Assembly: GCA_963851415.1 (NCBI GenBank)
Contig: CAWKPF010000002.1
Location: 2,374,526-2,438,525, forward strand
Reading direction: 5' to 3'
Source: an uncultured Acidobacteriota bacterium
Lineage (GTDB): Bacteria; Acidobacteriota; Thermoanaerobaculia; Multivoradales; Multivoraceae
DNA: 64,000 nt
This document shows positions 3,724 to 45,364 of the stretch, piece after piece. The stretch's first letter is position 1, and every line of letters starts with the position of its first letter. The position numbers and the translations under genes were made by a program. The notes under the pieces are model-generated. The model saw only the letters and a list, made by a program, of their open reading frames with translations. It made no database searches and had not been told where the DNA came from.

Positions 3724-4563
3724 TCACCCGTCGGCTCGGGGAACCCGCGAAAAGCTGCGCGCGACCCAGCCCTCGAGGATCCTCTGCGCAGTAATGCCTC
3801 GCGAGCGCAGATCGGGGCCCTCGAGCAGCTCCTCGGCCAGCCCGAGCAGGGAGCGTCGCATCTCGGAGTGCTCGCAGCGTCGAGCCGCAGCGAGCACCGT
3901 CGCGCTGGCCCGAGCCCAGGGCTCGCCCGAACGAGGGTCCTCCCAGCCGCCTAGGTCCAGGAGACTGGCGGCATAGGAAAGAACGAAGACCGACGAGCGC
4001 AGCCGAAGCCAGTCCTCGACTGCCGAGACCAGGCGGTCGACGACTTCCTCGTTCGCCTCACCCGTCACGCTCTGTCCCAGGAAAATGGACAGACAACGAC
4101 TGCGCAGCGTCGGCAGCAGATCGGTGGCAGAGGGGGCGAGCAGAAGGAAGTGGCGCGGCGCCGAGTCTGGCGGCTCCTCGAGACTCTTGAGCAGAGCGTT
4201 GGCGGCGCCCCCCGTGAGGGATTCCGCGCTGGTGATCATCAACACCTGGCCCCGGGCCTCGAAGGGACTCTGCTGAATGCTCCGCAGCAGACCACGGGTG
4301 GCATCGGCCGACGTGGAGGTCTTGAGGTCGCGCTCCAGCACCAGGAAGTCAGGATGAAAATGATCTCCGTCTCCGGGGCCTTCGATCCTGCGACAGTGCC
4401 GGCAGGTACCGCAGGGTCGCTCGTCGGGGGCCAGCTCGCAGAGCAGCGTTCGAGCCAGTTCGACACCCGCCGCAATCCGCCCCTCGCGGCTCCCACCGTG
4501 CAAGATCACGCCCGGATAGAGAGCCCCTTCGCGCGCCTTCTCCAATGCTGGATCGATTGCCAT
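3724..4563 (-). CDS. holB: DNA polymerase III subunit delta'
   Basis: ILHGGSREG... and the zinc module PCGTCRHCRRI are typical of HolB. Lies immediately downstream of tmk, the conserved tmk-holB order. Confidence 0.8.
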   Translation of the reverse strand: MAIDPALEKAREGALYPGVILHGGSREGRIAAGVELARTLLCELAPDERPCGTCRHCRRIEGPGDGDHFHPDFLVLERDLKTSTSADATRGLLRSIQQSPFEARGQVLMITSAESLTGGAANALLKSLEEPPDSAPRHFLLLAPSATDLLPTLRSRCLSIFLGQSVTGEANEEVVDRLVSAVEDWLRLRSSVFVLSYAASLLDLGGWEDPRSGEPWARASATVLAAARRCEHSEMRRSLLGLAEELLEGPDLRSRGITAQRILEGWVARSFSRVPRADG

Positions 4564-17715: not shown

Positions 17716-19350
17716 ATGAAACCGCTCGCTAATCAGCTCAAGTGGATCATCGGCCTTCGGCTCGTCGTCGTGACGAGCGCAGTGCTCCTGCAGCTGCTGC
17801 TGCGGCTCTTCGCCGTCGACGTGGACCTGAGGGCGGGCTACCTCTACCTGGTGGCGGCAGGCGTCTACGTCGCCAGCTTCATCTACATGACGCTGCTCCG
17901 CCTGTTCCCCGAGCGACTGTTCGCGCAGGCGTACCTCCAGTTCATCGTCGATCTCCTGATCATCACGGGTCTGGTCAGCGTGACCGGTGGCATCTCGAGC
18001 CCCTTCTCGATGCTCTACCTGGTGATCATCTCCGTAGCCGCCGCACTGCTGCGACGGCGCGCCGGAATGGTCATCGCCCAGATCGCGTGGTTGCTCTACG
18101 CCGGACTCCTCGTCGTCCTCTACTCCCAGGACCCGAACTCCGAAACCGTTCCTCTGCTGATCTACAACCTCTTCTCCACCCTGCTCGGCTTTGCCGGGGT
18201 CGCCGTTCTCACCTCGTACCTGGCAAGAAACATCGCCCGGGCCGAAGAGGAGTTGGTGGCCGCGACGACCAGCCTCGAGGAGCTCGAGGTGATGCACCGC
18301 GACGTGATCGAGTCGATCGCGTCCGGGATCATCACCACCGACCTCGAAGGGCGAATCGTGAGCATCAATCGTGCGGGAAGGGAGATTCTCGATCGCTCGG
18401 AGGGGGACCTTCTCGGATCTGCCGTGTACAAGACCGGCCTCATGACGCAGGAGCAGTGGAGCCAGCTGTCCACAGCCAGCTCGATCCCGGAGCGCGTCCG
18501 GGACGAAGGCGAAGTCCGGCGAGGAGGTGAGGTCCTGTATGTCGGCTTCTCGGTCAATGACCTCAGTGACGCGGACGGAGAGCGGCGCGGCTACATCATC
18601 ATCTTCCAGGACCTCACCGACTGGAGAAAGCTCCAGGAGGAAGTCCAGCTCAAGGACCGAATGGCCGCCGTCGGCGAGCTGGCTGCAGGAATCGCCCACG
18701 AGATCGGGAACCCACTGGCAGCGATCTCGGGATCGGTACAGATGCTCTCCCACTCGGCGAGTCCCGAGGGGTCGACCGAGAAGCTTCTGGGCATCATTCT
18801 GCAGGAGAGTCGACGGCTCGACCGCACGATCAAGAGCTTCCTACGCTTCGCCCGTCCGCGCGAACGAACGGCGATCGAGTTCGACATCGCCCAGCTCCTG
18901 GCCGAGAACCTCACCCTCCTCCGAAACAGCGAAGAGGTGCTGACCGGACACCTGATCGAGCTCGACCTCGACCCGCCGTCGGCACTTCTCCAGGGCGACC
19001 CCGACCAGATCAGTCAGATCTTCTGGAATGTGACCCGCAATGCCTTGCGCGCCATGCCCGAAGGCGGCACGTTGCGCATCGGGGGGCGTATGGCTCAAGA
19101 CAGCTACCTCATTCGATTTGCCGACACCGGGCGGGGAATGTCCGAGCGCGAACGAGCCAACCTGTTTCACCCGTACCACACCTTCTTCGACGGCGGCGTC
19201 GGAATCGGAATGGCGATCGTCTATCGAATCGTCGAGGAGCACGGCGGCCGTATCTCCGTCCACAGCGCCCCCGACGCCGGAACCATCGTGGAAGTCCGCC
19301 TCCCGGTTTCTCGAGCCCAGGCCATTCCGTCCATCGAGGCCACCGCATGA
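17716..19350 (+). CDS. pilS: sensor histidine kinase, PilS-like
   Basis: N-terminal multi-TM region, PAS-like segment, H-box AAGIAHEIGNPLAAISG and HATPase_c (ADTGRGM…GGVGIGMAIV). Stop overlaps the pilR start (ATGA). Confidence 0.8.
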   Translation: MKPLANQLKWIIGLRLVVVTSAVLLQLLLRLFAVDVDLRAGYLYLVAAGVYVASFIYMTLLRLFPERLFAQAYLQFIVDLLIITGLVSVTGGISSPFSMLYLVIISVAAALLRRRAGMVIAQIAWLLYAGLLVVLYSQDPNSETVPLLIYNLFSTLLGFAGVAVLTSYLARNIARAEEELVAATTSLEELEVMHRDVIESIASGIITTDLEGRIVSINRAGREILDRSEGDLLGSAVYKTGLMTQEQWSQLSTASSIPERVRDEGEVRRGGEVLYVGFSVNDLSDADGERRGYIIIFQDLTDWRKLQEEVQLKDRMAAVGELAAGIAHEIGNPLAAISGSVQMLSHSASPEGSTEKLLGIILQESRRLDRTIKSFLRFARPRERTAIEFDIAQLLAENLTLLRNSEEVLTGHLIELDLDPPSALLQGDPDQISQIFWNVTRNALRAMPEGGTLRIGGRMAQDSYLIRFADTGRGMSERERANLFHPYHTFFDGGVGIGMAIVYRIVEEHGGRISVHSAPDAGTIVEVRLPVSRAQAIPSIEATA

Positions 19351-20831
19351 GTGCACACATTCTTGTCATTGACGACGAGGCCAGCCTTCTGGAGTTCATC
19401 CGTCTCCTGTTCGAGGAACAGGGCTACCGGGTGACGACAGCGAACTCGGTCACGGACGCTCGAGCGAAGCTGGCTGGCGAGAGTTATGACCTGGTTCTCT
19501 GCGACATCATGATGCCCGACGGCAGTGGACTCGATCTCCTCCGTGAGATCAAGGATGTGGCGCATCGCACATCGGTCATCATGATGACCGCGTACACCTC
19601 GACGAAGTCGGCCATCGAAGCGATGAAGCTCGGCGCCTACGACTACGTCTCCAAGCCCTTCGACGTCGACGAGATGAAGGTGCTGGTCGAGAAGGCGCTG
19701 GAGAAGACCGAGCTCGTCGACGAAAACGTCTACCTCCGCCGCGAGCTTCAGCAGAAGTACACCTTCTCCAACATCATCGGAAGAAGCCGCAAGATGCAGG
19801 CCATCTTCTCCCTGATCGAGAAGGTCGCTCGGACCAACTCCACCATCCTGATTCACGGAGAAAGCGGCACCGGCAAGGAGCTCATCGCTCGTGCCGTTCA
19901 CTTCAACAGCCCACGCGCCAAACGTCGCTTCCTGTCGATCAACTGCGGCGCGCTGCCGGAGAACCTGCTCGAGAGCGAGTTGTTCGGCCACGAGCGCGGT
20001 GCATTCACGGGTGCCGTTCGCGAGAAGAAGGGACTCTTCCAGGAGGCCGACGGTGGAACGCTGTTCCTCGACGAGATCGGGGAAATGAGTCCGACCATGC
20101 AGGTCAAGCTCCTGCGCGCTCTACAGGACAAGACCGTTCGCAAGGTCGGAGGGAATCGCGAAGAGCGCGTCGACGTGCGCATCATCGCTGCGACCAATCG
20201 CGATCTTCTCGAAGCGATTTCGCAGAACGAGTTCCGAGAGGACTTGTTCTATCGCATCAACGTGATCCCGATCCAGCTTCCGCCGCTTCGCGAACGGCGA
20301 GAGGACATTCCGCTCCTCATCGACCATTTCGCCGCCCAGTACAGCGCCGAGATGCACGGGTCCGATCCCCCGGGTGAGAACCGGGCGCCGGCACCCCGCT
20401 TTTCCCACGACGCCATGCGCTCCCTGGAGAACTACGATTGGCCCGGCAACGTGCGTGAGCTGGAGAATCTGGTGGAGCGCTCGATCGCCCTCTCTTCGTC
20501 CGAAGTGCTGGAGAACGCGGATCTACCGGGGCATCTGCAGGGAGTCGAGGCCGGAACTCCGGACGGCATCTCCCTGCCGACCGACGGACTCGACCTCGAG
20601 CAGTACCTCGAAGGCATCCGATCGCATCTCATGTCCGAGGCCCTCGAGCGCACGAACTGGGTCCAGACCCAAGCGGCTGAGTTGCTGGGAATGAGCTTTC
20701 GCTCGTTCCGCTACTACGCCAAGAAGGCCGGGCTCACCGGGCGCAAGGAGAAGGCCGACGGAAACGGCCAGGAGGGCGACACCGACCCGGCGAACAACGG
20801 CGAGAACGAAAGGGCCGTGAGCGGCGGCTAG
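19347..20831 (+). CDS. pilR: sigma-54-dependent response regulator, PilR/NtrC family
   Basis: REC domain (DDEASL…LVLCDIMMPDGSG), AAA+ sigma-54 activation domain (GESGTGKE, GAFTGA, ESELFGHE) and C-terminal Fis-type HTH. Confidence 0.85.
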   Translation: MSAHILVIDDEASLLEFIRLLFEEQGYRVTTANSVTDARAKLAGESYDLVLCDIMMPDGSGLDLLREIKDVAHRTSVIMMTAYTSTKSAIEAMKLGAYDYVSKPFDVDEMKVLVEKALEKTELVDENVYLRRELQQKYTFSNIIGRSRKMQAIFSLIEKVARTNSTILIHGESGTGKELIARAVHFNSPRAKRRFLSINCGALPENLLESELFGHERGAFTGAVREKKGLFQEADGGTLFLDEIGEMSPTMQVKLLRALQDKTVRKVGGNREERVDVRIIAATNRDLLEAISQNEFREDLFYRINVIPIQLPPLRERREDIPLLIDHFAAQYSAEMHGSDPPGENRAPAPRFSHDAMRSLENYDWPGNVRELENLVERSIALSSSEVLENADLPGHLQGVEAGTPDGISLPTDGLDLEQYLEGIRSHLMSEALERTNWVQTQAAELLGMSFRSFRYYAKKAGLTGRKEKADGNGQEGDTDPANNGENERAVSGG

Positions 20832-21387: not shown

Positions 21388-22266
21388 TCAATCGGTGAAG
21401 CGGTCGCCGTCGGTCTTGATCTGGATTCGGAGTCCGGTCTGCCGTCCTGTCTCCCCGACCGAGGCACCCTGCTCACTCGCTGCGAGGCTGTCTAGATGCT
21501 CCTGCGTCGGCTCGATGTTGACCAGTTGCAAGACCGAGAATCCATACAGCAACCGAACCCCGTTCTCCAGGCCAAGGCTACTCGAACTACAGAGCTCTTC
21601 GAGTGAGGTCTCCTCGTCGATTTCCTTGAGCAGGGAGATCTCCTCTTCTCTCAGCGCCAGATCGATCAGATCGATCGGCTCGTACTGCTTCTCCACCTTC
21701 GAAGAAGACCCCAGCAGCTCGAGCAGCTCCTGTGGCAGCGGATAATACCGGGCTCCTTCCTTGATCGCATAGCGAATCGGGATCGCCAGTCCCTCCTCGG
21801 CCCGGTCGCCCACGTTTCTCTCTCCAGGCTCACCGATACTGAAGGTGACGGTGCCTCGACTCCACCCGAAGAGGCTCCAGACGATCCGCTCGATCTGGTC
21901 TCGCCGGGCCTCGGAGAACTCGGCCGCGGTCATCAATCCCTCCTCGATCAGGAGGGGACCGAGAGAGCCTTCCCCGCGTCGCGAGCGACGGACCCGGCGC
22001 AGCTGCTCGCCGCCAACCAATCCGCATCGCATCAGGTGAGCGCTCAGCGAGTCCTCGGGGCTCGATGAAGTGGCATGAACGATCTGACCGTCTCTCAGGT
22101 AGATTCGCTTGACCACATCGTCACAGATCGCCTCGAGCACCCCAGGCACTCCGAAGCGATCGATCGTGTTCAGCATTTCGGGCAGCGGCCGTTCCGCGAG
22201 CTCGCCCCGATAGTGGTATCGCTCCAAGAAACCCTCCGCCCAGGCTCGGGCCGTTGCTCCCTCCAT
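21388..22266 (-). CDS. hypothetical protein, DUF4388-like (by recollection; uncertain)
   Basis: Codon usage and length support a real gene; no catalytic motif recognised. Start placed at MEGATARAW. Confidence 0.4.
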   Translation of the reverse strand: MEGATARAWAEGFLERYHYRGELAERPLPEMLNTIDRFGVPGVLEAICDDVVKRIYLRDGQIVHATSSSPEDSLSAHLMRCGLVGGEQLRRVRRSRRGEGSLGPLLIEEGLMTAAEFSEARRDQIERIVWSLFGWSRGTVTFSIGEPGERNVGDRAEEGLAIPIRYAIKEGARYYPLPQELLELLGSSSKVEKQYEPIDLIDLALREEEISLLKEIDEETSLEELCSSSSLGLENGVRLLYGFSVLQLVNIEPTQEHLDSLAASEQGASVGETGRQTGLRIQIKTDGDRFTD

Positions 22267-22421
22267 CGGCCGGAGGGCGAGGGACCCGGAGAGAGCACGA
22301 TGAGAGAAAGGACACGACTCAGGAGGGCTTCCATCCACCGAAGGCCGGGAAGTCCTCCTTCGAATGCCCAGCGCGCAATTCTATCGCAACTGTACGGGCG
22401 CGACGGGGTAGCATCTGGCCA

Positions 22422-23648
22422 ATGATCAGCCCGGAAACAGCGTGGGAGGCTCTCGAGCCTCAGCTCGAGCCTCTCGAGAGCGAACAGGTGCGGCGCTCAG
22501 AGGCTGCAGGCCGCGTGCTGACGGCTCCCCTCCGGGCCACGTTGGATGTCCCGGCGGCAGACCTCTCGGCCATGGACGGCTACGCGGTCGGTCCTCGGAT
22601 CGAAGTCGGTTCGCGACTCGAGGTGGCCGGCATCGTCGCGGCAGGGGATCCTCCCGGAGCCCAGCTGGAGGCCGGCAAGGCGCTGCGCATCATGACCGGA
22701 GCCCCGACGCCCACGGGTACCGATCGAATCGTGCCGATCGAGCTCACCGACGGCGGGCGCGACCGCGTGACCCTGCGAGAGGTCCCGCCGAGCGAAGCAC
22801 ACATCCGACGACGCGGCGAGATCGTGCGTGTCGGCGAGACCCTTTTCGAGGCAGACACCCTGCTGACCCACGGAGCTCTCGGTGTGTTGGCCACGCACGG
22901 ACTCGACCGCGTTCCGGTCTACCGCCGTCCCACCGTGGCGATCCTCACCACCGGCGACGAGGTGGTGCCTCCCGAAACCGTCCCGGGCCCCGGTCAACTG
23001 CGCGATTCGCACGGAGATTTCCTCGCCAGTGCAGCAGCCGGACTGAGCCACGTCGAGCGCCTCGGCATCGCGCCTGACGAGCCTGGGGCGCTCACCCAAC
23101 TGGTCGAGCGTGGCCTGCGCTCGGACGTGCTCCTTCTGACCGGTGGAGTCTCGATGGGCGAGTTCGATCTGGTCGAGGACGTGCTGGAGGCGCTCGGCTG
23201 CGAGCTTCTCTTCGACGCAGTGGCCATCCAACCGGGAAAGCCACTGGTCGCCGCCAGGCACGACGGCGGCCTCGTCTTCGGCCTGCCGGGCAACCCGGCC
23301 TCGGCAATGGTCACCTACTGGCTCTTCGTCCGACCGACTCTGCATCGACTGCAGGGCATCCCCGATCGGTTCTGGGGCGATGCCCTCAACGGCGTGCTCG
23401 CCGCTGCCTGCGTCGGTGCGAAGGGACGGGACCGCTTCCTGCCCGCCCAGGTCGGCTTCACGAATGGCGAGATTCGGGTCCACCCGAGACCCCCTGCCGG
23501 GTCCCACGATCTCGGCGCCTACGGAGCCGGCACGGCATTGCTGCGAGTCCCCGCCGGCTCGGCGCCCGCCGAGGCCTCGGCGCCCTGCCAGATCCTTCCG
23601 CTCGGAGAGTGGCGTCCCACGGTTCACTCCACGGAGACTCAGCGATGA
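22422..23648 (+). CDS. moeA: molybdopterin molybdenumtransferase MoeA
   Basis: LSAMDGYAV…, GEIVRVGE…, ILTTGDEVV…, LLLTGGVSMGEFD…, GLPGNPASAMV are MoeA/gephyrin-E signatures. Start at MISPETAWE; upstream ORF-track extension removed. Confidence 0.85.
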   Translation: MISPETAWEALEPQLEPLESEQVRRSEAAGRVLTAPLRATLDVPAADLSAMDGYAVGPRIEVGSRLEVAGIVAAGDPPGAQLEAGKALRIMTGAPTPTGTDRIVPIELTDGGRDRVTLREVPPSEAHIRRRGEIVRVGETLFEADTLLTHGALGVLATHGLDRVPVYRRPTVAILTTGDEVVPPETVPGPGQLRDSHGDFLASAAAGLSHVERLGIAPDEPGALTQLVERGLRSDVLLLTGGVSMGEFDLVEDVLEALGCELLFDAVAIQPGKPLVAARHDGGLVFGLPGNPASAMVTYWLFVRPTLHRLQGIPDRFWGDALNGVLAAACVGAKGRDRFLPAQVGFTNGEIRVHPRPPAGSHDLGAYGAGTALLRVPAGSAPAEASAPCQILPLGEWRPTVHSTETQR

Positions 23649-24043
23649 CCTTCGACCCCGACCTCGACGTCGAGCGCTACATCAGTCTCGCGACCTATCG
23701 AAAGAGCGGCAAGGAGGTCGCCACGCCCGTCTGGTTCGCCCAGGACGGGAATCGCCTGTTGGTCGTCACCGGCGGGGACTCGGGCAAGGTGAAGCGACTG
23801 CGCAACTCGAGTCGCTCTCGCATTGCCGTGTGTGACCTGCGAGGCAAGATCCTGGGAAAGTGGATGCCGACCGATACCCGCATCGTCACAGACGAGAGGG
23901 AGATCGCCACCGCACTGCGTTTGCTGCGGGGCAAGTACGGCGTCCAGTTCAAGATCCTGGACCTCTCGGCCTGGTTCGGGAGACGGCTCGACCAGCGGGT
24001 CTTTCTCGAGATCCGCCCTGGCGCGGAGGGCGGTTCGGGGTAA
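23645..24043 (+). CDS. PNPOx-like / PPOX-class (F420-dependent-type) split-barrel flavin-binding protein
   Basis: YISLATYRKSGKEVATPVWFAQDGNRLLVVTGGDSGKVKRLRN matches the split-barrel PPOX/DUF385 pattern. The ATG overlaps the moeA stop (ATGA). Confidence 0.6.
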   Translation: MTFDPDLDVERYISLATYRKSGKEVATPVWFAQDGNRLLVVTGGDSGKVKRLRNSSRSRIAVCDLRGKILGKWMPTDTRIVTDEREIATALRLLRGKYGVQFKILDLSAWFGRRLDQRVFLEIRPGAEGGSG

Positions 24044-24057
24044 CATGCTTCGCCTGC

Positions 24058-24157
24058 GGAAGCGCTCGGGGGCTGGTGCCTCCTGCGGTCTTCAAAACCG
24101 TTTTGTCGTATGGGATGCCATGCGATGGGTGGGTTCGATTCCCATGCGCTTCCGCCA
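24058..24157 (+). tRNA. selC: tRNA-Sec (selenocysteine tRNA, anticodon UCA)
   Basis: 100 nt. 8-bp acceptor stem GGAAGCGC/GCGCTTCC, discriminator G, encoded CCA. 6-bp D-stem GGGGGC/GCCTCC with 4-nt loop TGGT. Anticodon loop cTTCAaa (U33 then TCA). Long 9-bp variable arm GTCGTATGG/CCATGCGAT. T-arm GTGGG-TTCGATT-CCCAT. Same GGAAG…CTTCCGCCA ends as E. coli selC. Confidence 0.8.
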
Positions 24158-24277
24158 CTTCCCCCGCCTTCGGCGGGGAAGGGCGAAGCGCTTGGGTCTC
24201 GGTGGTCGCACTGTCCTTCCCTGAAGGGAAGGGCAGTGCTCTGCAACGATTCCCATGCCGTGCCCTGGCGAACGTTG

Positions 24278-24426
24278 GAGCTCGCGCCTTGCGGCGCATC
24301 GCGCTAGTGAGGGGGCTCGCGCTTTTCGCGCATCGCGGAAGAGATGGATGTGCATGCACGAGCTCGCGCCTTGCGGCGCATCGCGCTAGTGAGGGGGCTC
24401 GCGCTTTTCGCGCATCGCGGAAGAGA
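24278..24426. repeat. two 67-bp perfect direct repeats separated by a 15-bp spacer containing the palindrome GTGCATGCAC
   Basis: gagctcgcgccttgcggcgcatcgcgctagtgagggggctcgcgcttttcgcgcatcgcggaagaga occurs at 24278-24344 and 24360-24426. Each copy contains two gcgcatcgcg sub-repeats. Lies between the 3' ends of selC and the convergent HTH regulator gene. Confidence 0.8.
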
Positions 24427-24441
24427 GCGTCGGGGAAGCGC

Positions 24442-24720
24442 TCAACCGGTCTGTATGAGCTTTAGGAGCTGGCCCACCTGGGCATGCTGCTCGAGAGGGT
24501 GCCGAAGGGGCACCCGGGGGTTGATCTCGTAGTGGTTCTTGCGTCCGACACGCGTCCGATCGAGCACGCCCTCTTCGACCAGCTCGGCGACGATTCGGTG
24601 CGCTGCGCGCTCGGTGATTCCTACTCGTTCCGCGACCTCACGAAGCGTCAGGTCGGGATCCTGCGCGAGACAGAGCAGGACGTGTGCATGGTTCGTCAGA
24701 AAGGTCCAGGTGCCTTGCAT
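24442..24720 (-). CDS. small winged-helix (ArsR/MarR-like) transcriptional regulator
   Basis: 92 aa; LTLREVAERVGITERAAHRIVAELVEEGVL is a helix-turn-helix recognition segment. Confidence 0.55.
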   Translation of the reverse strand: MQGTWTFLTNHAHVLLCLAQDPDLTLREVAERVGITERAAHRIVAELVEEGVLDRTRVGRKNHYEINPRVPLRHPLEQHAQVGQLLKLIQTG

Positions 24721-24850
24721 CTCCCTGATCGTAGCAGTTCAAGAAAACTAATACACGAAATGTAAAAGTGGACTGAGAATTCATGAATCGACTACCATTG
24801 TCGCTCCTGCCGTCGGGCTCGGATCAGCGAACCTTCCTTCGAGCCCCGCC

Positions 24851-26527
24851 GTGCATCGCTTCATGAGGAGGACCCTTTCCGTGCAACTCGATCTGCGCAA
24901 GCGCTTCTTCGGCAACATTCAAGGGGATCTCTTCGGCGGAGTGACGGCGGGCATCGTCGCCCTGCCACTGGCTCTCGGATTCGGCGTGGCCTCCGGACTG
25001 GAGAATGGCGCTGCCGCCGGCCTCTACGGTGCCATCGCCGTGGGACTCTTCGCTTCTTTGTTCGGAGGCACACCGACCCAGATCTCCGGGCCGACGGGGC
25101 CGATGACGGTCATCGTTGCCGGTCTGGTGGGCAGTATGACCGGTGACGCACGGTGGATCTTTGCCGCGGTCATCCTCGCCGGGCTCTTCCAGATCGTTCT
25201 CGGACTGCTGCGCTTCGGCCGATACATCAACTACATCCCGTATCCGGTGATCTCCGGATTCATGAGTGGCATCGGCGTGATCATCATCATTCTGCAGATG
25301 GCTCAGATCGTCGGCCATCGGCCAGCCGCCGGAACGGTCGAGGCGATCCGAAGGATTCCCGAGGACTTCACCAACGTCAATTTCGCTGCCTTGGCGCTCG
25401 GTCTCGCCACGATTGCCGTGATCTACCTCACCCCCCGGTTCACCAAGGCGGTGCCCGGAGCGCTGATGGCCCTCGGCCTGGTGACCGCGGCGTCGCTCCT
25501 GCTGCCGTTCGAGATCCCGAGGATCGGAGCGATCCCCCGCGGGCTGCCGGCGATGTCCCTGCCGCCTTTCGATGTAGAGATGCTGCGCGTGATCCTCCTC
25601 CCGGCATTCCTGCTCGGCGCAATCGCCAGCATCGACTCCCTCTTGACCTCCCTGGTCGCCGACGCCATGACGAAGACCCGACACGACAGCGAGCGGGAGC
25701 TCTTCGGCCAGGGCCTCGGTAACGTGGTGGCGGGTCTGTTCGGCGGGCTGCCCGGAGCCGGCGCCACGATGCGCACCGTGGTGAACATCAAATCCGGGGG
25801 CACCGGACACCTGTCGGGTGTGATCCACTCGCTGTTCCTGGTCCTGACACTGCTGGTGGTCGCGCCGATCGCCGAACGGATTCCGATGGCGGTGTTGGCC
25901 GGGATCCTGATCACCGTGGGGCTCGGCATCGTCGACATGAAGGGCCTGCGCCACGTGCTGAGAGCGCCCCGCGGCGATGCCGCAGTCATGCTCGTAGTGC
26001 TGGGTCTGACCGTGTTCGTCGACCTGATGTGGGCTGTGGCCGTAGGCATGGTGATGGCCGCCATGATCCTGCTCAAGCGCCTCAGCGACCTCGACCCGGC
26101 CACGCACTCTCCGTTGGTCGATATCGCGGCACACCGCCCCTGGATTCCACCGCTCGAGGTGCCCGACGAGGTCCTCGAAGGGGTCTTCGTGGTCGAAGTG
26201 CACGGCTCGCTGTTCTTCGGCAATGCCGGGCCGCTGCAGAGAAAACTCTCCGGCGCGAAGGACGCCGACGCCATCGTCCTGCACATGGGAGACGTGCCCT
26301 ATCTCGATCAGTCAGGGGTCTACGCGCTCGCCGACCTGGCCGACGATCTCACGGCACACGGCACCCGGGTCTACGTCGCGGAGCTCCAGAGCGAGCCGCG
26401 GGAGATTCTCGGTCTGCTGGGCGTGATTCCGGACAAGATCCCCGAGGAACGGGTCTTCGACTCCGTTCAGAAGGCGATCACGGAGGCCACCGACAAGGCC
26501 CACCGACTCAAGAGCGAGGCTTCGTAG
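24851..26527 (+). CDS. SulP-family anion transporter with C-terminal STAS domain
   Basis: N-terminal …FGGVTAGIVALPLALGFGVASG… SulP signature, about 10-12 TM helices, then the cytoplasmic STAS region (…VLHMGDVPYLDQSGVYALADLADDL…). Confidence 0.85.
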   Translation: MHRFMRRTLSVQLDLRKRFFGNIQGDLFGGVTAGIVALPLALGFGVASGLENGAAAGLYGAIAVGLFASLFGGTPTQISGPTGPMTVIVAGLVGSMTGDARWIFAAVILAGLFQIVLGLLRFGRYINYIPYPVISGFMSGIGVIIIILQMAQIVGHRPAAGTVEAIRRIPEDFTNVNFAALALGLATIAVIYLTPRFTKAVPGALMALGLVTAASLLLPFEIPRIGAIPRGLPAMSLPPFDVEMLRVILLPAFLLGAIASIDSLLTSLVADAMTKTRHDSERELFGQGLGNVVAGLFGGLPGAGATMRTVVNIKSGGTGHLSGVIHSLFLVLTLLVVAPIAERIPMAVLAGILITVGLGIVDMKGLRHVLRAPRGDAAVMLVVLGLTVFVDLMWAVAVGMVMAAMILLKRLSDLDPATHSPLVDIAAHRPWIPPLEVPDEVLEGVFVVEVHGSLFFGNAGPLQRKLSGAKDADAIVLHMGDVPYLDQSGVYALADLADDLTAHGTRVYVAELQSEPREILGLLGVIPDKIPEERVFDSVQKAITEATDKAHRLKSEAS

Positions 26528-26567: not shown

Positions 26568-29500
26568 CTAGGCGGGTGCGCCCCGCTCCACCTCGGCGGC
26601 ACCTCCCGCCCATCCTCTCGACCGTCGAACTCGCTCCATCAGACCCGTGGTGCTGACGTACACCACCGGGATCAGCACGAGGGTGACCAGCGTCGAGGCG
26701 AACAGTCCGCCGATGACGACTCGCGCGAGCGCGGCCTGAATCTCGGCACCGGGGCCGAGCCCGACCGCCAGCGGCGCGAGACCGAGAATGGTCGTGGTGG
26801 TGGTCATGAGAATCGGGCGCAGTCGAAGTCGTCCCGCTTCCACCACGGCCTCGACCACCCCCAGGCCGCGGTCCCGACGCAAGAGATTGATCGTGTCGAC
26901 CAGCACGATGGCGTTGTTGACCACGATGCCGATCAGCATGACCAGCCCCATCACGCTCTGAAGATTGAGCGTCGTGCCGGTCAACAGCAGCGTGGGGACG
27001 ACCCCGATGAGCGCCATCGGCACCGAGACCATCACGATCAGCGGATCGAGAAAGCGCTCGAACTGCGCTGCCATGAGCATGTAGACCAGCGCCAGTGCCA
27101 TCAAGATGGCGACCAGGAAGTCGCGCTTGGCTTTCTGCTGCTCTTCGTACTCGCCCCCGAAGTAGATCGAGAAGCCCTCGGGGATCGGCATGTCGGCCAG
27201 CGCGATCCGCACCTCTTCGACGGCGTCTCCGAGGGCCACGCCGCTCTCCAGATCGGCGCTGATGTAGGTCACGCGCTGGCCGTCCGTGCGCGAGATCGAT
27301 GTCGGACCGCGACCCCGTCGCCGCTCGACCACCGTCGAGAGCGGAATCGCCGCGCCGGAGGGTGTGCGTAGAGACACGTTTCGAAGATCCTGCCCGGTGA
27401 GTCGGTCCTCGGCGCGTAGCCGGACCACGATCGGATACTCATCGCCACCGTCGCGAAGACGGCCTGCTTCACTGCCTCCGACGTTGGCCTGGATCGTCCG
27501 CGCCACATCGCGCACGGTCAGCCCCAGCTCGGCAATGCGCTCTCGGTCGAACACCAGGTCTTCCTGGGGCTGACCCTCACGCCGACGAACGCGGGCACTG
27601 ATCACTCCGGGGACCTGCTCCATCCGGCGCATGATCTCCTGGGCCATCCGATCCGCCTGTTCGAGATCCCAGCCGCGAAGCTCCAGCTGCACTGCCTCGT
27701 CGCCGTCTCCGGAACTGAACACGCGTCTCAGGATCCACATCCCCGGGTAGGCGCCGACTCGAAGCCGGGCACCGGGCAGCTGACCGTCGATCGCCTCGCG
27801 GAGCTCGTCCGCCATCTGACTGCTCGACATCGAGCGCTCGTCCTCCGGCACCAGCTTGAGCTCGATCTCGGCGTCTCCACCCCGCACTTCGGTCGAGACG
27901 AAGGCGACGTTCTCGGCGGGAAGAACCCGGCGCACCATCTCTTCGAGCTCCTGGATGTAGGCGCGCACCACGGTGATGTTCGTGCCCTGCGCCATCTCGA
28001 TGTCGATGCCGATCTCGTCGGCGTCGGTCTGGGGAGCCAGCTCGACCGGAATCCGCGGCCACAGCAACAACACACCGCCCAGCAGTGCGAAGGTGACGAG
28101 GATCACTCGGTACCGATGAGACAGTGACGACTCGAGGAGTCGGGAGTAGCGCGCTTCGAGACGCCCGAACAGCGTCTCCTTCCTCTCCTCCTCGGGGCGA
28201 GGCGGTGTGCGGGCCATTCGCGCCGCCAACATCGGCACCAGGGTCAAGGCCACCAGGAGCGAGCAGACCAGAGCGAACACGACCACCAGCGCCAACGCCT
28301 GGAAAAGCGCTCCACTCGTGGTGCGCGCGAAGACGACCGGCAGGAAGATCACGCAGGTGGTCAGGGTCGAGGCGACAATGGCACCGGCCACCTCGGTCGT
28401 TCCCACCAGCGCCGCCTCGTGCCGTCCCAGGCCCCCTTCCTCGCGCTTGCGCACGATGCTCTCGAGCACCACGATCGCGTTGTCCACGATCAGACCGACC
28501 CCCAGGGCCAGCCCACCGAAGGTCATCTGATTGAGGGTCAGTCCACCGAAATAGAGCAGGGCGAAGGTCGAAATGACCGAGATCGGAATCGAGAGAGCAA
28601 TGATGGCCGTACTCGAGCGATTGCGCAGAAACGCGTAGAGCACCAGCACCGCGAGCAGCGATCCCCAGATCGCGGAACTGCGCACGCTCGAGATCGACTG
28701 CCGGATGAAATCGCTCTGATCCGAGACCACGGTGAGATGAACATCCGAGCGGTCCATATTGATTCGCTCGACCTCTTCACGCACACGGTCGGCCACCGTC
28801 ACCGTGTTGGCGCCGCTCTGCTTCTGGATCCCGAGGCTCACCGACGGCATCCCGTTGACTTCGACCAGCCAGCGCACATCTTCGTAGTCGTCACGCACGT
28901 TGGCGACGTCGCGCACGCGAACGGGAAGTCCGCCGATGTTCGTGATCACCGTATTGGCGATCTCCTCGACGCTCTTGTACTCACCGAGTGCCCGCACGTA
29001 GAGGTCGGTATAGCCGCTCTTGACGTTGCCGCCGGGCACGGTCAGGTTCTCTTGCGCGAGGCTCTCTCGAACATCCAAAGCGGTCAAGCCCGCCGCGCGC
29101 AGGCGATCGCGCGCCAGCTCGACGCGGATCTGGCGATTGATGCCACCGCGAACTTCGATCGTGCCCACTCCCGGAATCTGCTCGAACCGACGCGACACGT
29201 CATCCTCGAGGATCCGTGTCAGCTCCTCGAGAGGACGGGTCGACGTCGCTGCCAGAGAGACGACCTCGGCGCGATCGAGATCGAGCTTCCAGATCTGCGG
29301 CTGCTCGGCCTCGAGAGGCAGGTCGTCACGCAGGCGATCGAGCGCTGCCCGAAGGTCGTTGGCCGCCTCGTCGATATTCGTCCCGCGGCCGAACTGCAAG
29401 CTCACCCGGCTCGAGCCCTCCTCGGATCTCGAGGTGATGCGTTCGAGATTGGGCAACCCCGAGACGGCGTTCTCCACCGGGTCCGTGATGATCTGCTCGA

Positions 29501-29678
29501 TCTCTTCCGGTCCGACGTTGGGGTAGGAGGTCCAGACCGTCAAACGAGTGAATTCGATCTTCGGCAACAAGTCGACCGGAAGGCTGCGCAGTGAAACGAT
29601 GCCCAGCACGACCAGAATGAGGAAGACCATCGCGGTCGCGACCGGGCGACCGACAGAGATCCGAGTCAGATTGGACAC
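26568..29678 (-). CDS. RND efflux transporter permease (AcrB/CzcA superfamily)
   Basis: 1036 aa, 12-TM RND architecture. N-terminus [39 protein letters not shown] and internal repeats are typical of HAE/HME RND pumps. Confidence 0.9.
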
Positions 29679-29693: not shown

Positions 29694-31145
29694 TCAGAGG
29701 GTCGAAGCCGGCACCGGACCGCGCGGGACTGGTGTCTGGACACTCTTGCCGAGGAACTCTTCGTTGGTCGGGGGGGTCGCCCCACGCTCACGGGCGAGAC
29801 GCTGCTGCTTCTCGAGGAATCCGCGCAGCAGATCTTCTCGCTGAAGTCCCTGCAGCGCGACGACCTTCTCCCAGCTCGACTCTCGCACATGCGCCTCGAG
29901 TGTCTCCTCCTCGGAGGAAAAAAGGTGTTGGCCAAGCGTCACTACCCACTCGCCGGGCTCGACACCCGTGATACCCACGCTCTGGCGCCCCTCGGCGAGA
30001 ACCTCGACGGGGCGAAACTCGATCGGAAAGGCCTCCTCCGAGAGCTCGGCCGTTGCCACCGAGCCCAGATCCGCGGAGGTCACATCCGACGTCGGTGCCA
30101 AGCCAGAGACCGGACGACCCGACTCGGAGTAGCCCGCCGCCACGAAGACCCCGATCAATCCTGTCCTGGGGTCTTCCCAGAGAGCACTGGTCGGGACCAG
30201 GGTGGCTCGCTCGCTCTCGCCGTAGAGCACGTCGACCGTCACGAACATCCCGGGTCGGAGCGGACCATCGGTGTTCGCGACGTCGACCTCTCCGATGGTG
30301 CTGAAGCTGGTGGACTCGAGAAACGGCGAGATGCGTGACAACACTGCGCGCACACTGCCCTCGCCGAGAGACGAGGAGGAGATCTCGACTGGCAGCCCTT
30401 CGTCGATGTAGGCCAGCATTCCTTCGGTCAGGGGTACCTCGACGATGAGGGAGTTCAGATTGCCGATCTGGAAGAGCAGCGTGCCCGGGTCGACCAGCAT
30501 GCCGACCTCCACGTTGCGCTGCCCCACGCTGCCGGAGATCGGCGCGCGAACCAGGGTATCGGCGAGCTGAGAGCGCCGCTCCTGCACCGTTGCCTCGGCC
30601 TGCTGGACGCGAGCGCGGGCCGCCGCGGCAGACGCCTGGGTGGCCTGCAGCCGAGCTTCCTGGGTCTCGAGATCGACCTCACTGACCAGGTCCTGCTCCG
30701 CCAGAGCTCGGGTGCGCGTCACCTGGGCTTCGATTTCCGCCACTCGCGCCACGGCTTCCGCAGCGGAGGCTTCGGCCAATGCGACAGCCGCTTCGGCCTG
30801 ACGAAGCTGATCCTGGAGGGCATCGTCTTCGAGGCGCACCAGCGGCTGGCCAAACTCGACCAGCTGTCCGCTTCGAACCATGACCTCGAGCACGGGAGCA
30901 CTGATCTCCGGATAGATCGCCACCTGGTTCTCTGCCCGGACGACACCACTGAGGCGCTCCTGTAGCGGGAGTGCTCCGACCCTGGCCTGTACGATCTCGA
31001 CAGCGGGAATCGGACCCTGCTCGCGGTCTTCGAACGCTTCCTCAGACTCTCCGGAGCCGCAAGCCACCGTGCTCATGGCGATCGCTGCGACTGCGAGTGC
31101 CCAGCGCCTTTTCCAGAGCCGGCCCCCCGTCGTTTGACCCCGCAT
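29694..31145 (-). CDS. RND efflux periplasmic adaptor (membrane fusion protein)
   Basis: Signal/lipobox AIAMSTVACGSG, coiled-coil hairpin (LRQAEAAVALAE…ARLQATQASAAAARARVQQAEA) and biotinyl-lipoyl-like motif VRAPISGSV. Start trimmed to MRGQTTGG (31145). Confidence 0.8.
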   Translation of the reverse strand: MRGQTTGGRLWKRRWALAVAAIAMSTVACGSGESEEAFEDREQGPIPAVEIVQARVGALPLQERLSGVVRAENQVAIYPEISAPVLEVMVRSGQLVEFGQPLVRLEDDALQDQLRQAEAAVALAEASAAEAVARVAEIEAQVTRTRALAEQDLVSEVDLETQEARLQATQASAAAARARVQQAEATVQERRSQLADTLVRAPISGSVGQRNVEVGMLVDPGTLLFQIGNLNSLIVEVPLTEGMLAYIDEGLPVEISSSSLGEGSVRAVLSRISPFLESTSFSTIGEVDVANTDGPLRPGMFVTVDVLYGESERATLVPTSALWEDPRTGLIGVFVAAGYSESGRPVSGLAPTSDVTSADLGSVATAELSEEAFPIEFRPVEVLAEGRQSVGITGVEPGEWVVTLGQHLFSSEEETLEAHVRESSWEKVVALQGLQREDLLRGFLEKQQRLARERGATPPTNEEFLGKSVQTPVPRGPVPASTL

Positions 31146-31420
31146 CGAACTCACCTCCTCGAAATCAGACCGAGCGATCCTCCTCTGGGGGAAGGCCCGC
31201 TCCTGGGAACTTCTCCTATTTCTTCGATCCGGTACGCCGATCGGATGCCGGCGTACCCTTGAACCTACGCGATTTCCCAAAGGGCGGATGCAAGAAGCGT
31301 GTAAAACAGGTCCTGAGAGGGAGGCGCGAGCCGCCCGAGGCGGCCTCTAGCGGCAGCGACGGGCATGGGCCGCCGCGTGGCACGACGCACACTCTAGTAG
31401 TCTGCCCACCGGAGTTGCCC

Positions 31421-35119: not shown

Positions 35120-35692
35120 TCAGTCGGAGGTGTTGGAGTCGTCGACCCAGACTCGAACCGTGGTTTCGTCATCGCGCACGGTGACCATATCGCCGTCGCC
35201 GTGCTCGGCCAGAGCCCGCACCGCAGCCGCCAGATCGAGCCTCCCGTTCTCACCCGAGAACAGCGCATCGATCACCGCGAGCGGGAACCGCACGTTGACC
35301 TCGGCTCCGTCGCCCCCGCGCTCGACGGTCTGGGCAACGAAGTAGTCACCCTCTTTGCGCACCTCGACGGTGTCATCGTGCTCACGCACGGTGACATAGG
35401 TCGCATCGGGACCGTTGCGCATCTCCTCCCAGAGCTGCCGAAGGTCCTCGACATCGATGTCGGAGTCGTTGAGCCCGAGTCGGACTTCCTCTTCGACTTC
35501 CGCTGGAATGAGGCGCAGAGCGGACTCGATCAGATCGAGCGGCAGATTGACCATCACCTCCGCACCGTCGATCTCGTCGACGCGGACGTGGAACCAGCGC
35601 TCGGCTGCGGGCGCCGCCGCCGCGACGAGCCCGAGCATCAAGGTGAAGGCCAGGGACAGGATCAGGGTTCGGCTCTTTCTTTGGGTCATCGC
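35120..35692 (-). CDS. hypothetical secreted protein (paralogue of the previous gene)
   Basis: Signal peptide. VNLPLDLIESAL … YVTVREHDDTVEVRKEGDYFVAQTVERGGDGAEVNVRFP parallels the upstream neighbour. Confidence 0.4.
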   Translation of the reverse strand, partial: AMTQRKSRTLILSLAFTLMLGLVAAAAPAAERWFHVRVDEIDGAEVMVNLPLDLIESALRLIPAEVEEEVRLGLNDSDIDVEDLRQLWEEMRNGPDATYVTVREHDDTVEVRKEGDYFVAQTVERGGDGAEVNVRFPLAVIDALFSGENGRLDLAAAVRALAEHGDGDMVTVRDDETTVRVWVDDSNTSD

Positions 35693-36613: not shown

Positions 36614-38125
36614 ATGGTAGTGCTCGCCTTGATGGCGGTGCACGCCGCGGTTGCGCTCGCCTTTCCGATCTCCGGGGACGAGGCGTACTACTGGGACTGT
36701 GCCCGACATCTCGACTGGAGCACCTTCGATCAGCCACCCCTGGCAATCTGGACGATCGCCGCAGCCCGCTGGGTGCTGGGCGACAGCCAGCTGGCGGTCC
36801 GGGCTCCGGCCTTGCTCGCGGGGTTGATCATCGCGGTGACCCTTCTTCCCCTGGTTCGAAGGCTCGGGGGTAGCGTCCGCGACACCACCCGCGTCTGGCT
36901 CTGGCTGCACGTGCTGCCCCTGTTCGCGCTCGGTCTCTCCTACGCCTCGACCGACGTCGCGATGGCGGCCGCGTACGTCGTCGCGATTCTGGCCATCGTG
37001 GCCATCGTGCAGGGTCGGCGCGCGGCCTGGTGGGGTCTCGGCATCGCGCTCGGTCTCGGGTTTCTCGCCAAGTATCCGATCATCACGGCCCTCCTGCCCG
37101 CCTCGGTCGCGCTGCTCTCCCCTCGGGTGCGAGCGGACCTGCGCACCCCCGTACCCTGGCTGGCGGCGCTGCTCTCGTTTCTCCTGACCCTGCCGGTGTG
37201 GATCTGGGGGGCGCGCAACCAGTGGGACAATCTGGCCTTCCAGTTGAGTTGGCGACACTCTCCCCGCGGGCTCACCTCGAAGTATCTGCTCGAGTTCATC
37301 GGCGCCAACATCGGGCTCGCGTCTCCGGTGCTGGCGGTGCTCCTGATCGGCGGCCTCTGGCGGGCACTCGGACACCGCGAGGTGGAGTGGCGCGTCCTGG
37401 TCGCCGCCGCTCTCGCCCCCTTCCTCTTCTTCGGCTTCGTCGCCCTGCGCACCCGGGTCGGGGCGCATTGGGGAGCCCCGGGCCTCGTCATCCTGGTCGT
37501 GCTCTTCGTTCTGACCGGCTTCGGGGGCCCGCGGGTCCGACGGATCGCCGCCGCGGTGGGCGTGGTGCTCTCCGCGAGTGTCCTCACGCTGCTCGCGGCA
37601 CCGGGACTGGCGGCCGGCTTCGACTGGGCCTACGAAGAGCGCTCCGACAAGATCCGCACGTCGAAACTGGTGCGCATCGTCGGCAACGAGGCAATCGCAG
37701 CCGCCGTCGAAGCCCGACGCGATGCATGGGCCGAGGAGCTCGGTGTGCCAAACCGTGAGATCTACATCGGCTCGGAGAGCTACTCCGCTGTGCACCTTCT
37801 CGCCTTCTACTCCGGTGGCCGCCTCGACACCCGCCTGGTCCGCCTCACTGCCGGACAGCACGGCCTCGCTTCGCTGTACTGGTACGAGGAGGACGAGTTC
37901 CGCGAACGGCGATTTCTGATGGTGAGCGAGAAGAGCGACTGGCGACTGCCGCTACTGGTGGACGAGATCCACGAGCACTTCGGCCAGGTCGAAGAGGCTC
38001 CTCCCATCGTGGTCGACACCGGGAAACTCGGCTCCCGCACCCTGAGGGTGTGGCACTGCTCGGAGCCCCTCGATCCGGCGCTGATGTTCACCCGCGAAGC
38101 GGTGCGCGCCGAGCAGGCCTTTTGA
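36614..38125 (+). CDS. GT-C glycosyltransferase family 39 (ArnT/PMT-like undecaprenyl/dolichyl-phosphate-sugar transferase)
   Basis: The DEAYYW motif (GDEAYYWDCARHLDWS) in the first periplasmic loop is the GT39/ArnT hallmark; about 11 TM helices. Confidence 0.75.
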   Translation: MVVLALMAVHAAVALAFPISGDEAYYWDCARHLDWSTFDQPPLAIWTIAAARWVLGDSQLAVRAPALLAGLIIAVTLLPLVRRLGGSVRDTTRVWLWLHVLPLFALGLSYASTDVAMAAAYVVAILAIVAIVQGRRAAWWGLGIALGLGFLAKYPIITALLPASVALLSPRVRADLRTPVPWLAALLSFLLTLPVWIWGARNQWDNLAFQLSWRHSPRGLTSKYLLEFIGANIGLASPVLAVLLIGGLWRALGHREVEWRVLVAAALAPFLFFGFVALRTRVGAHWGAPGLVILVVLFVLTGFGGPRVRRIAAAVGVVLSASVLTLLAAPGLAAGFDWAYEERSDKIRTSKLVRIVGNEAIAAAVEARRDAWAEELGVPNREIYIGSESYSAVHLLAFYSGGRLDTRLVRLTAGQHGLASLYWYEEDEFRERRFLMVSEKSDWRLPLLVDEIHEHFGQVEEAPPIVVDTGKLGSRTLRVWHCSEPLDPALMFTREAVRAEQAF

Positions 38126-44797: not shown

Positions 44798-45364
44798 ATG
44801 CAGAGGAAAACCACGACATTCGCCGCAATCACGCTCCTGGGCGCCCTCTGGGCCGCCACCGGCCAGGCCGAAGATCCGTCAGATCACCCGATGATCGGGT
44901 CTCCGGCGCCCCCCTTCGAGCTCGAGTCCGTCAACGGCCACCCGCCGCTCTCGCTCGGAGAGCTGCGCGGCGGCTACGTCGTGGTGCACTTCGCAGCCAG
45001 CTGGTGACCGTTCTGTAATGCGGAGGCTCCGCATTTAGAAGCAGTGTCCCAGAAGTACCGGAACCGGAATGTCCGGGTCCTGATCATCGACGTGATGGAG
45101 GACTCGAAGGTGGCCTCCGACTGGGCGAAGCACCACGGTTTCAGCTTCCCGGTACTGCACGATGCCGAGGGCGAGGTCAGCACCCGTTACGCCCCCGAGG
45201 AAGTGCTCCCCGATCTGCCTCGGGACCAGGTCCCCATCGCCTCGAATCTGATCATCGATTCAGAAGGCAAGATCCAGTTCTACACGCTCCTCGACAGCCG
45301 GAACTTCGACGCCAAGCTGATTGCGCTACAGGCTCGACTGGACGAGCTGCTGGCACAGGACTGA
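44798..45364 (+). CDS. selenocysteine-containing thioredoxin-fold thiol:disulfide oxidoreductase (TlpA/ResA/redoxin family), Sec encoded by in-frame TGA at 45005-45007
   Basis: ORFs 44798-45007 and 45044-45364 are in the same frame. Read-through gives signal peptide MQRKTTTFAAITLLGALWAATGQA…VVVHFAASW-U-PFCNAEAPHLEAV…, i.e. the redoxin motif WCxxCRxExPxL with U in place of the first Cys. selC is present at 24058. Confidence 0.75.
45018..45034 (+). promoter_or_regulatory. bacterial SECIS-like hairpin 10 nt downstream of the UGA-Sec codon
   Basis: atgcgg-aggct-ccgcat (6-bp stem, extendable to 9 bp with flanking a/t) begins 11 nt after the TGA. Apical loop contains G, as in bacterial SECIS elements. 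Confidence 0.5.

Follow-up and report, generated by a model that had tools for sequence, protein, structure and literature searches.

A bacterial 8/5-type selenocysteine tRNA gene downstream of moeA in a genome from within or near the Thermoanaerobaculia

The 100-nt element at positions 24058–24157 on the forward strand of the 64-kb stretch of DNA analysed here (the window) is almost certainly the selC gene of its organism, coding for a canonical bacterial selenocysteine tRNA (tRNA-Sec) of the 8/5 type with an encoded CCA end. The identity of this tRNA, its fold, and its conservation and covariation among relatives were observed directly, as was a target gene that carries an in-frame TGA codon and a SECIS-like hairpin and that lies in the same window, 21 kb from the tRNA. 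As judged from these sequence comparisons, a role for this selC in selenocysteine (Sec) insertion is well supported.

Results

Identification of a tRNA-Sec gene

A tRNA-Sec gene at 24058–24157 had been proposed in an earlier note on this DNA, which suggested checking it with ARAGORN and Infernal, and the two programs agree on the locus. ARAGORN, run in bacterial mode, called a tRNA-SeC(tca) on the forward strand with exactly these coordinates, and this was the sole tRNA that it called across the 64-kb window. Infernal matched 24058–24153 to the Rfam tRNA-Sec family (RF01852) over the full length of the model (positions 1–91), with a score of 71.4 bits (E = 1.3e-12), 24 bits higher than the gathering score of 47. 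RF01852 was the only Rfam family over threshold in the window. Neither a low covariance score nor a non-viable fold was found, all helices of the cloverleaf described below being viable.

The minimum free energy (MFE) fold of the 100 nt has an energy of −51.6 kcal/mol (z = −4.3), and none of 200 dinucleotide shuffles was as stable. This unconstrained fold is itself the 8/5 cloverleaf, and the pair list derived from it defines the arms as follows, all on the forward strand. The 5′ strand of the acceptor stem (24058–24065) forms eight Watson-Crick pairs with 24146–24153 (tRNA positions 1–8 and 89–96) and is followed by a 2-nt linker before the D-stem. The D arm (24068–24083; GGGGGC-UGGU-GCCUCC) consists of a 6-bp stem with one G.U pair and a 4-nt UGGU loop. 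The anticodon arm (24085–24101), also delimited by ARAGORN, has a 5-bp stem and the 7-nt loop CUUCAAA, in which the anticodon UCA occupies tRNA positions 35–37 (24092–24094) with a U immediately 5′ to it. The earlier note had allowed two G-U pairs in the anticodon stem, which does not hold, as only one (G28.U44) of the five pairs in the pair list is a G.U, and U27 and U45 are mismatched. The long variable (extra) arm (24103–24128) is capped by a GAUG loop and has 11 bp in the MFE fold, seven of them Watson-Crick and four G.U. The note was right that the arm is long and wrong about its length, which it gave as 9 bp, a figure that is obtained if the two U.G pairs at its outer end are not counted. 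The T arm (24129–24145; GUGGG-UUCGAUU-CCCAU) has a 5-bp stem that opens with a G.U pair, and it is followed by the 3′ strand of the acceptor stem (24146–24153), the discriminator G (G73; tRNA position 97, window position 24154) and CCA (24155–24157). The 8-bp acceptor stem, the 6-bp D-stem with its 4-nt loop, the UCA anticodon preceded by U, the discriminator G and the CCA end had all been described in the note, and all are present in the MFE fold. The acceptor and T stems together form a branch of 13 bp (8+5).

Conservation and covariation among relatives

To search for relatives, we used a pattern made from the 5′ end, D arm and anticodon loop of this tRNA and scanned one genome per species. 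The pattern was matched in at least 118 species genomes and, among the matches listed, nearly all of these belong to the class Thermoanaerobaculia (Acidobacteriota), many of them to Candidatus Multivorans/Multivoradales. Complete tRNAs from 115 loci among the matches listed yielded 87 distinct sequences which, together with the window tRNA, formed an alignment of 88 sequences. ARAGORN called tRNA-SeC in 11 of the 12 relatives tested. The tRNA-Sec genes of Thermoanaerobaculia, for example those of Candidatus Multivorans, have the same fold, G73 and CCA as the window tRNA. None of the 87 distinct relatives among the matches listed is identical to the window tRNA (best 91%), and outside the extra arm the mean identity between the window tRNA and these relatives is 98%. 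The extra arm of the window tRNA is unusually rich in A/U and in G.U pairs compared with the relatives, and its sequence was found nowhere else among the matches listed.

Across the 88 sequences, 94.0% of the cells at paired positions can pair, compared with 46–59% when the partners are slid by one to three columns. Changes on both sides were seen at 14 pairs, and none of 500 shuffles reached the observed values. All 11 pairs of the extra arm have changed on both sides among the relatives, in a compensatory manner. In the acceptor stem 99.7% of cells are paired and two pairs show double changes. The T-stem is paired in 100% of cells, and its opening G.U is kept in 86/88 sequences. This G.U lies at the acceptor/T-stem junction, which reads C8-G89 / G72.U88 / U73-A87 in tRNA positions. 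In E. coli the EF-Tu antideterminant at this junction is a C-G / G.U / C-G stack, and the third pair of the window tRNA is unlike that of E. coli. G28.U44 in the anticodon stem is kept in 84/88 sequences. The Rfam consensus has a sixth anticodon-stem pair at positions 27/45, but no standard pair occurs there in this clade. The patterns used for searching and extraction prescribed the D arm, anticodon loop and 3′ end, and the invariance of these three regions is therefore uninformative.

The structure of the acceptor/T branch also bears on the possibility that the element only resembles tRNA-Sec, and is instead either a tRNA-Cys(UCA) of the selC* type or an allo-tRNA with a UCA anticodon that suppresses opal codons generally or acts as a regulatory RNA. 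These mimics have a long extra arm, a D arm like that of tRNA-Sec and sometimes a UCA anticodon, and they are found as false positives of tRNA-Sec searches (PMC5389517). They have been described for some Deltaproteobacteria and Acidobacteria, and allo-tRNAs, reported from Acidobacteria among other groups (PMC5389517), are thus known in the apparent phylum of the window. However, the hallmarks of bacterial tRNA-Sec are a 13-bp acceptor/T branch in the 8/5 form and G73, whereas selC* tRNA-Cys has an 8/4 branch of 12 bp and U73, and allo-tRNAs have an 8/4 or 9/3 branch, again of 12 bp (Mukai et al. 2017, PMC5389517). The window tRNA has the 13-bp 8/5 branch, with a T-stem that is fully paired throughout the alignment, and it has G73, so the selC* and allo-tRNA types are excluded. 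The full-length match to RF01852, with its wide margin over threshold, likewise speaks against a mimic, and the SECIS-bearing target gene and the SelA genes of the clade described below favour genuine Sec insertion. We therefore regard a mimic as extremely improbable and treat the element as a true tRNA-Sec.

Window proteins are 47–68% identical to MoeA proteins encoded at the relatives' loci; for two sigma-54 regulators the identity is 67%. These identities suggest that the DNA comes from a distinct lineage within or near Thermoanaerobaculia. The presence of this type of tRNA in so many species genomes suggests that Sec decoding is widespread in the poorly studied Thermoanaerobaculia, as far as it can be read from tRNA genes. 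Our literature search returned no paper that joins Thermoanaerobaculia and selenocysteine.

A redoxin gene with an in-frame TGA codon

The gene at 44798–45364 on the forward strand, identified from its Pfam matches and from alignment around its TGA codon, encodes a predicted secreted protein of the AhpC/TSA-Redoxin family (ResA/TlpA-like). The product has 188 residues and a signal-peptide-like N-terminus. A single in-frame TGA codon is found at 45005–45007 (codon 70), in the context ...HFAASW-U-PFCNAE..., which gives the motif W-U-P-F-C. The TGA aligns with the first cysteine of the WCxxC motif in solved thiol:disulfide oxidoreductases of the ResA and TlpA types. We compared the codon at this site in 80 metagenome orthologues (L119–L198) and found TGA in 43/80 and a cysteine codon (TGT/TGC) in 37/80. 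This near-even split makes the family a clean natural case of Sec/Cys interchange.

A SECIS-like hairpin is located at 45017–45035 on the forward strand, as seen from its fold and from comparison of the orthologues, with the conserved core UGCGGAGGCUCCGCA at 45019–45033. The core has the general form G[C/U]GGAGGCUCC[G/A]C and starts 13 nt 3′ of the TGA; 30/30 distinct TGA forms of the gene carry it, as against 0/35 distinct Cys forms. Synonymous sites at the hairpin are frozen in the TGA forms only, whereas they vary freely in the Cys forms, and the mean energy of the hairpin is −10.1 kcal/mol in TGA forms compared with −2.9 kcal/mol in Cys forms. In L153, a TGA form, a C-G pair of the hairpin is replaced by U-A, a compensatory change. 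This is the pattern that a bacterial SECIS element would be predicted to produce. With its spacing of about 11 nt and its G-rich apical loop, the hairpin would also fit the published rules for bacterial SECIS elements. A selenoprotein at 44798 had already been called in the earlier note, and the call is upheld by the position of the TGA on the WCxxC cysteine, by the share of orthologues with TGA and by the restriction of the hairpin to the TGA forms.

We searched the window for a second selenoprotein gene. Among all TGA codons in the window with coding-like sequence on both sides, 45005 was the only one with a redox motif, and no second candidate was found. Three TGA codons at junctions between same-frame ORFs were considered as Sec codons and rejected, since each is a normal stop codon with a new start after it: 1650–1652 (a nitroreductase followed by an NTP-transferase), 35120–35122 (two abutting small secreted proteins) and 38123–38125 (a PMT_2 glycosyltransferase followed by MgtC/DUF4010).

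Sec synthesis genes and the decoding of UGA

The earlier note had held that the tRNA establishes that UGA is decoded as Sec. Since SelA, SelB and SelD are also required, a tRNA-Sec gene alone does not establish this; the conclusion is nevertheless reached by another route, through the TGA codon and hairpin of the redoxin gene and through the SelA genes of relatives. We screened with Pfam 146 ORFs that flank the homologous tRNA in relatives and found that SelA adjoins tRNA-Sec in two of them (L051:2011–3444(+) and L093:3255–4844(+)). These SelA proteins match Pfam SelA (E = 3e-134) and Se-cys_synth_N, and contain the PLP-lysine motif FSGDKLLGGPQAG. The location of SelA beside tRNA-Sec in these two genomes shows that the enzyme of Sec synthesis occurs in this clade.

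The ORFs annotated with Pfam across the 64 kb include no selA, selB or selD gene. This would agree with selC being an intact-looking relic, left unused after its genome lost the Sec-decoding trait, as would the switch to cysteine in about half of the redoxin orthologues and the common loss of Sec use in bacterial evolution (PMC1794560). However, the window redoxin retains both its TGA and the complete conserved hairpin, and without Sec insertion the protein would end at residue 69, before the active site. Against a relic we also count the tRNA itself, whose high identity to its relatives outside the extra arm is joined to helices that are all intact. We consider the relic very unlikely, and a selC in use for Sec insertion remains the reading that we adopt.

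Gene neighbourhood and transcription

Upstream of the tRNA, Pfam matches identify a PilS-like histidine kinase (17716–19350), a sigma-54 response regulator (19347–20831), a DUF4388 protein on the reverse strand (21388–22338) and, on the forward strand, moeA (22254–23648), which encodes molybdopterin molybdenumtransferase with the domains MoeA_N, MoCF_biosynth and MoeA_C. Between moeA and the tRNA there is a PNPOx-like ORF (23609–24043, forward strand; PNPOx_N, 32.2 bits with a cut-off of 28.1), whose stop codon lies 14 nt 5′ of the tRNA. The description of the tRNA as directly downstream of a PPOX-like gene is borne out by this domain match and by the short gap. Downstream of the tRNA are genes for a SulP permease (24851–26527) and, on the reverse strand, AcrB (26568–29678) and HlyD (29694–31280). 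The genes around the tRNA are thus ordinary ones of a chromosome.

A moeA homologue was found near selC in 48/118 loci (L001–L118) and is the commonest neighbour among the matches listed. Of the 43 loci with complete flanks, 18 have it within 2.5 kb of selC, and its 3′ end faces the tRNA in 46 of the 48 moeA loci, in either orientation of the tRNA (both counts being among the matches listed). While moeA is thus frequent beside selC in the window and in relatives alike, the PNPOx-like and SulP neighbours of the window selC are absent beside the relatives' selC among the matches listed.

A scan of 23400–24900 with the sigma-70 consensus detected no sigma-70-like promoter. No canonical or U-tract terminator was detected in the same interval, where the only predicted "terminator" is the tRNA's own anticodon arm. 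As neither a sigma-70-like promoter nor a U-tract terminator lies beside the tRNA, its co-transcription with the upstream genes is plausible.

We considered a genomic island or att site at the window selC and rejected it. The last 27 nt of the tRNA have no second copy in the window, allowing up to three mismatches, and the neighbouring genes, SulP, AcrB and HlyD, include no integrase. Nothing at this locus therefore points to an island.

The downstream spacer and copies of selC in relatives

The tRNA is separated from the SulP gene by a structured spacer of about 690 nt (24158–24850). A permissive Rfam search of this spacer returned noise-level miRNA matches only, and a blastn search of it against 198 fetched loci returned no match. 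The sequence that follows CCA in relatives differs from that in the window. Directly after CCA there is a strong hairpin at 24158–24181 (CUUCCCCCGCC-UUC-GGCGGGGAAG), and a second strong hairpin at 24208–24239 has a 14-bp stem and a UGAA loop; both are without a U-tract. These hairpins may be U-tract-less terminators, or elements involved in processing or stability of the tRNA.

About 120 nt downstream of the tRNA, the spacer contains perfect direct repeats of 67 nt (24278–24344 and 24360–24426) at a spacing of 82 nt. Each repeat contains a pair of related, GC-rich units (GCTCGCGC..GCGCATCGCG), which may be able to form hairpins. The repeat matched no Rfam family, and no further copy of it turned up in the window or among the 198 fetched loci. 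Just past the second repeat, 277 nt downstream of CCA, the 10-mer GGAAGCGCTC at 24434–24443 repeats exactly the 10 nt with which the tRNA begins. A related sequence, GAAGCGCT, is found at 24186–24193 and pairs with 24434–24443 in the MFE fold, enclosing the repeat region, which could be due to chance.

Extra direct copies of the 3′ part of the tRNA were seen in about 20 relatives among the matches listed; the window has none. Several Candidatus Multivorans genomes have one to three tandem units of 77–85 nt after an intact tRNA-Sec, with up to three in L065 (oriented 4152–4482), and such units also occur in L007 (3126–3310), L020, L049, L059, L064, L075, L076 and L098. Each unit contains a degenerate stretch resembling an anticodon arm (with a CTTCACA loop) followed by the extra arm, the T arm and the 3′ acceptor strand with CCA. 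These tandem units are arrays of 5′-truncated tRNA-Sec copies.

In relatives L115, L039, L109, L058 and L005, the 3′ 26–30 nt of tRNA-Sec are directly repeated 1–4.4 kb downstream in the manner of attL/attR. Integrated elements between these repeats were considered and rejected, as the intervening ORFs appear ordinary by eye and include no obvious integrase. By eye, these ORFs are FG-GAP-like, methyltransferase-like, a Ser/Thr kinase and amidohydrolase-like. A phage-integrase gene adjoins selC in two other relatives. The selC gene of L026 is disrupted or truncated: only the first ~41 nt of tRNA-Sec are present (the 5′ acceptor strand, D arm and anticodon loop), and they run into unrelated sequence within a contig.

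Discussion

The steps by which the window tRNA would be charged, converted and delivered are taken from the established bacterial Sec pathway, and we infer them, together with its transcription, for the tRNA described here. SerRS would charge the tRNA with serine, recognising the long extra arm and G73. SelA would then convert serine to Sec with selenophosphate supplied by SelD, and would recognise the tRNA by its 8-bp acceptor stem and its 6-bp D-stem with a 4-nt loop. SelB, rather than EF-Tu, would bring the charged tRNA to UGA codons that have a SECIS hairpin on their 3′ side, and the redoxin mRNA (44798–45364) would be one target of this delivery. Transcription of the tRNA itself probably reads through from the upstream moeA and PNPOx-like genes, or starts at a promoter within them, and RNase P would then process the transcript.

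That moeA recurs with its 3′ end next to selC could reflect functional coupling, with co-transcription or co-regulation of Sec decoding and of the insertion of the molybdenum cofactor, to serve a formate dehydrogenase dependent on both Sec and Mo/W. It may also be that selC is a recombination hot spot of this class, as the 3′ tRNA-Sec fragments arrayed in relatives might indicate. Both proposals are speculative and we think it unlikely that they hold. If coupling with moeA were real, the window tRNA would be released by maturation of a moeA-PNPOx mRNA at its 3′ end.

The value of the finding lies mainly in annotation and gene calling, and it adds a data point on Sec decoding in Thermoanaerobaculia. 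In-frame TGA codons of this genome need to be screened for Sec before the genes that contain them are called truncated. At least the redoxin gene is rescued in this way, since conventional gene calling would leave it split or truncated.

Comparison with known systems

The window selC is an ordinary bacterial selC, and the tRNA itself poses no challenge to current understanding. Prx-like thiol:disulfide oxidoreductases are a known family of bacterial selenoproteins, and Acidobacteria have selenoproteins (PMC1794560). The gene at 44798 resembles known redoxin selenoproteins in its AhpC/TSA-Redoxin fold, in its signal-peptide-like N-terminus, in the location of Sec at the first cysteine of WCxxC and in having both Sec and Cys orthologues.

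For comparison we used the sequence of E. coli selC, which was verified by a search in which it matched 5425 of 5426 genomes, with up to 100% identity, at loci annotated as tRNA-Sec. A blastn search of E. coli genomes with the window tRNA gave no match, because the identity of the two tRNAs, about 61% (64/105 alignment columns), is too low. Enterobacterial selC often carries genomic islands at its 3′ end, whereas the 3′ end of the window selC shows no sign of one. The extra arm is 26 nt long in the window tRNA and 21 nt in E. coli selC, and the position of the sixth anticodon-stem pair is U.U in the window tRNA, whereas a sixth pair folds in E. coli selC. The segment plan (8/2/6-4-6/1/5-7-5/1/extra arm/5-7-5/8/G/CCA) is common to both tRNAs, and they are alike in the CUUCAAA anticodon loop, the 6-bp D-stem with a 4-nt loop, the G.U pair that opens the T-stem, G73 and the encoded CCA. 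The earlier note had remarked that the ends of the tRNA parallel those of E. coli selC, and comparison with the verified E. coli sequence agrees, the two tRNAs being identical at the 5′ end (GGAAG) and at the 3′ end (CTTCCGCCA).
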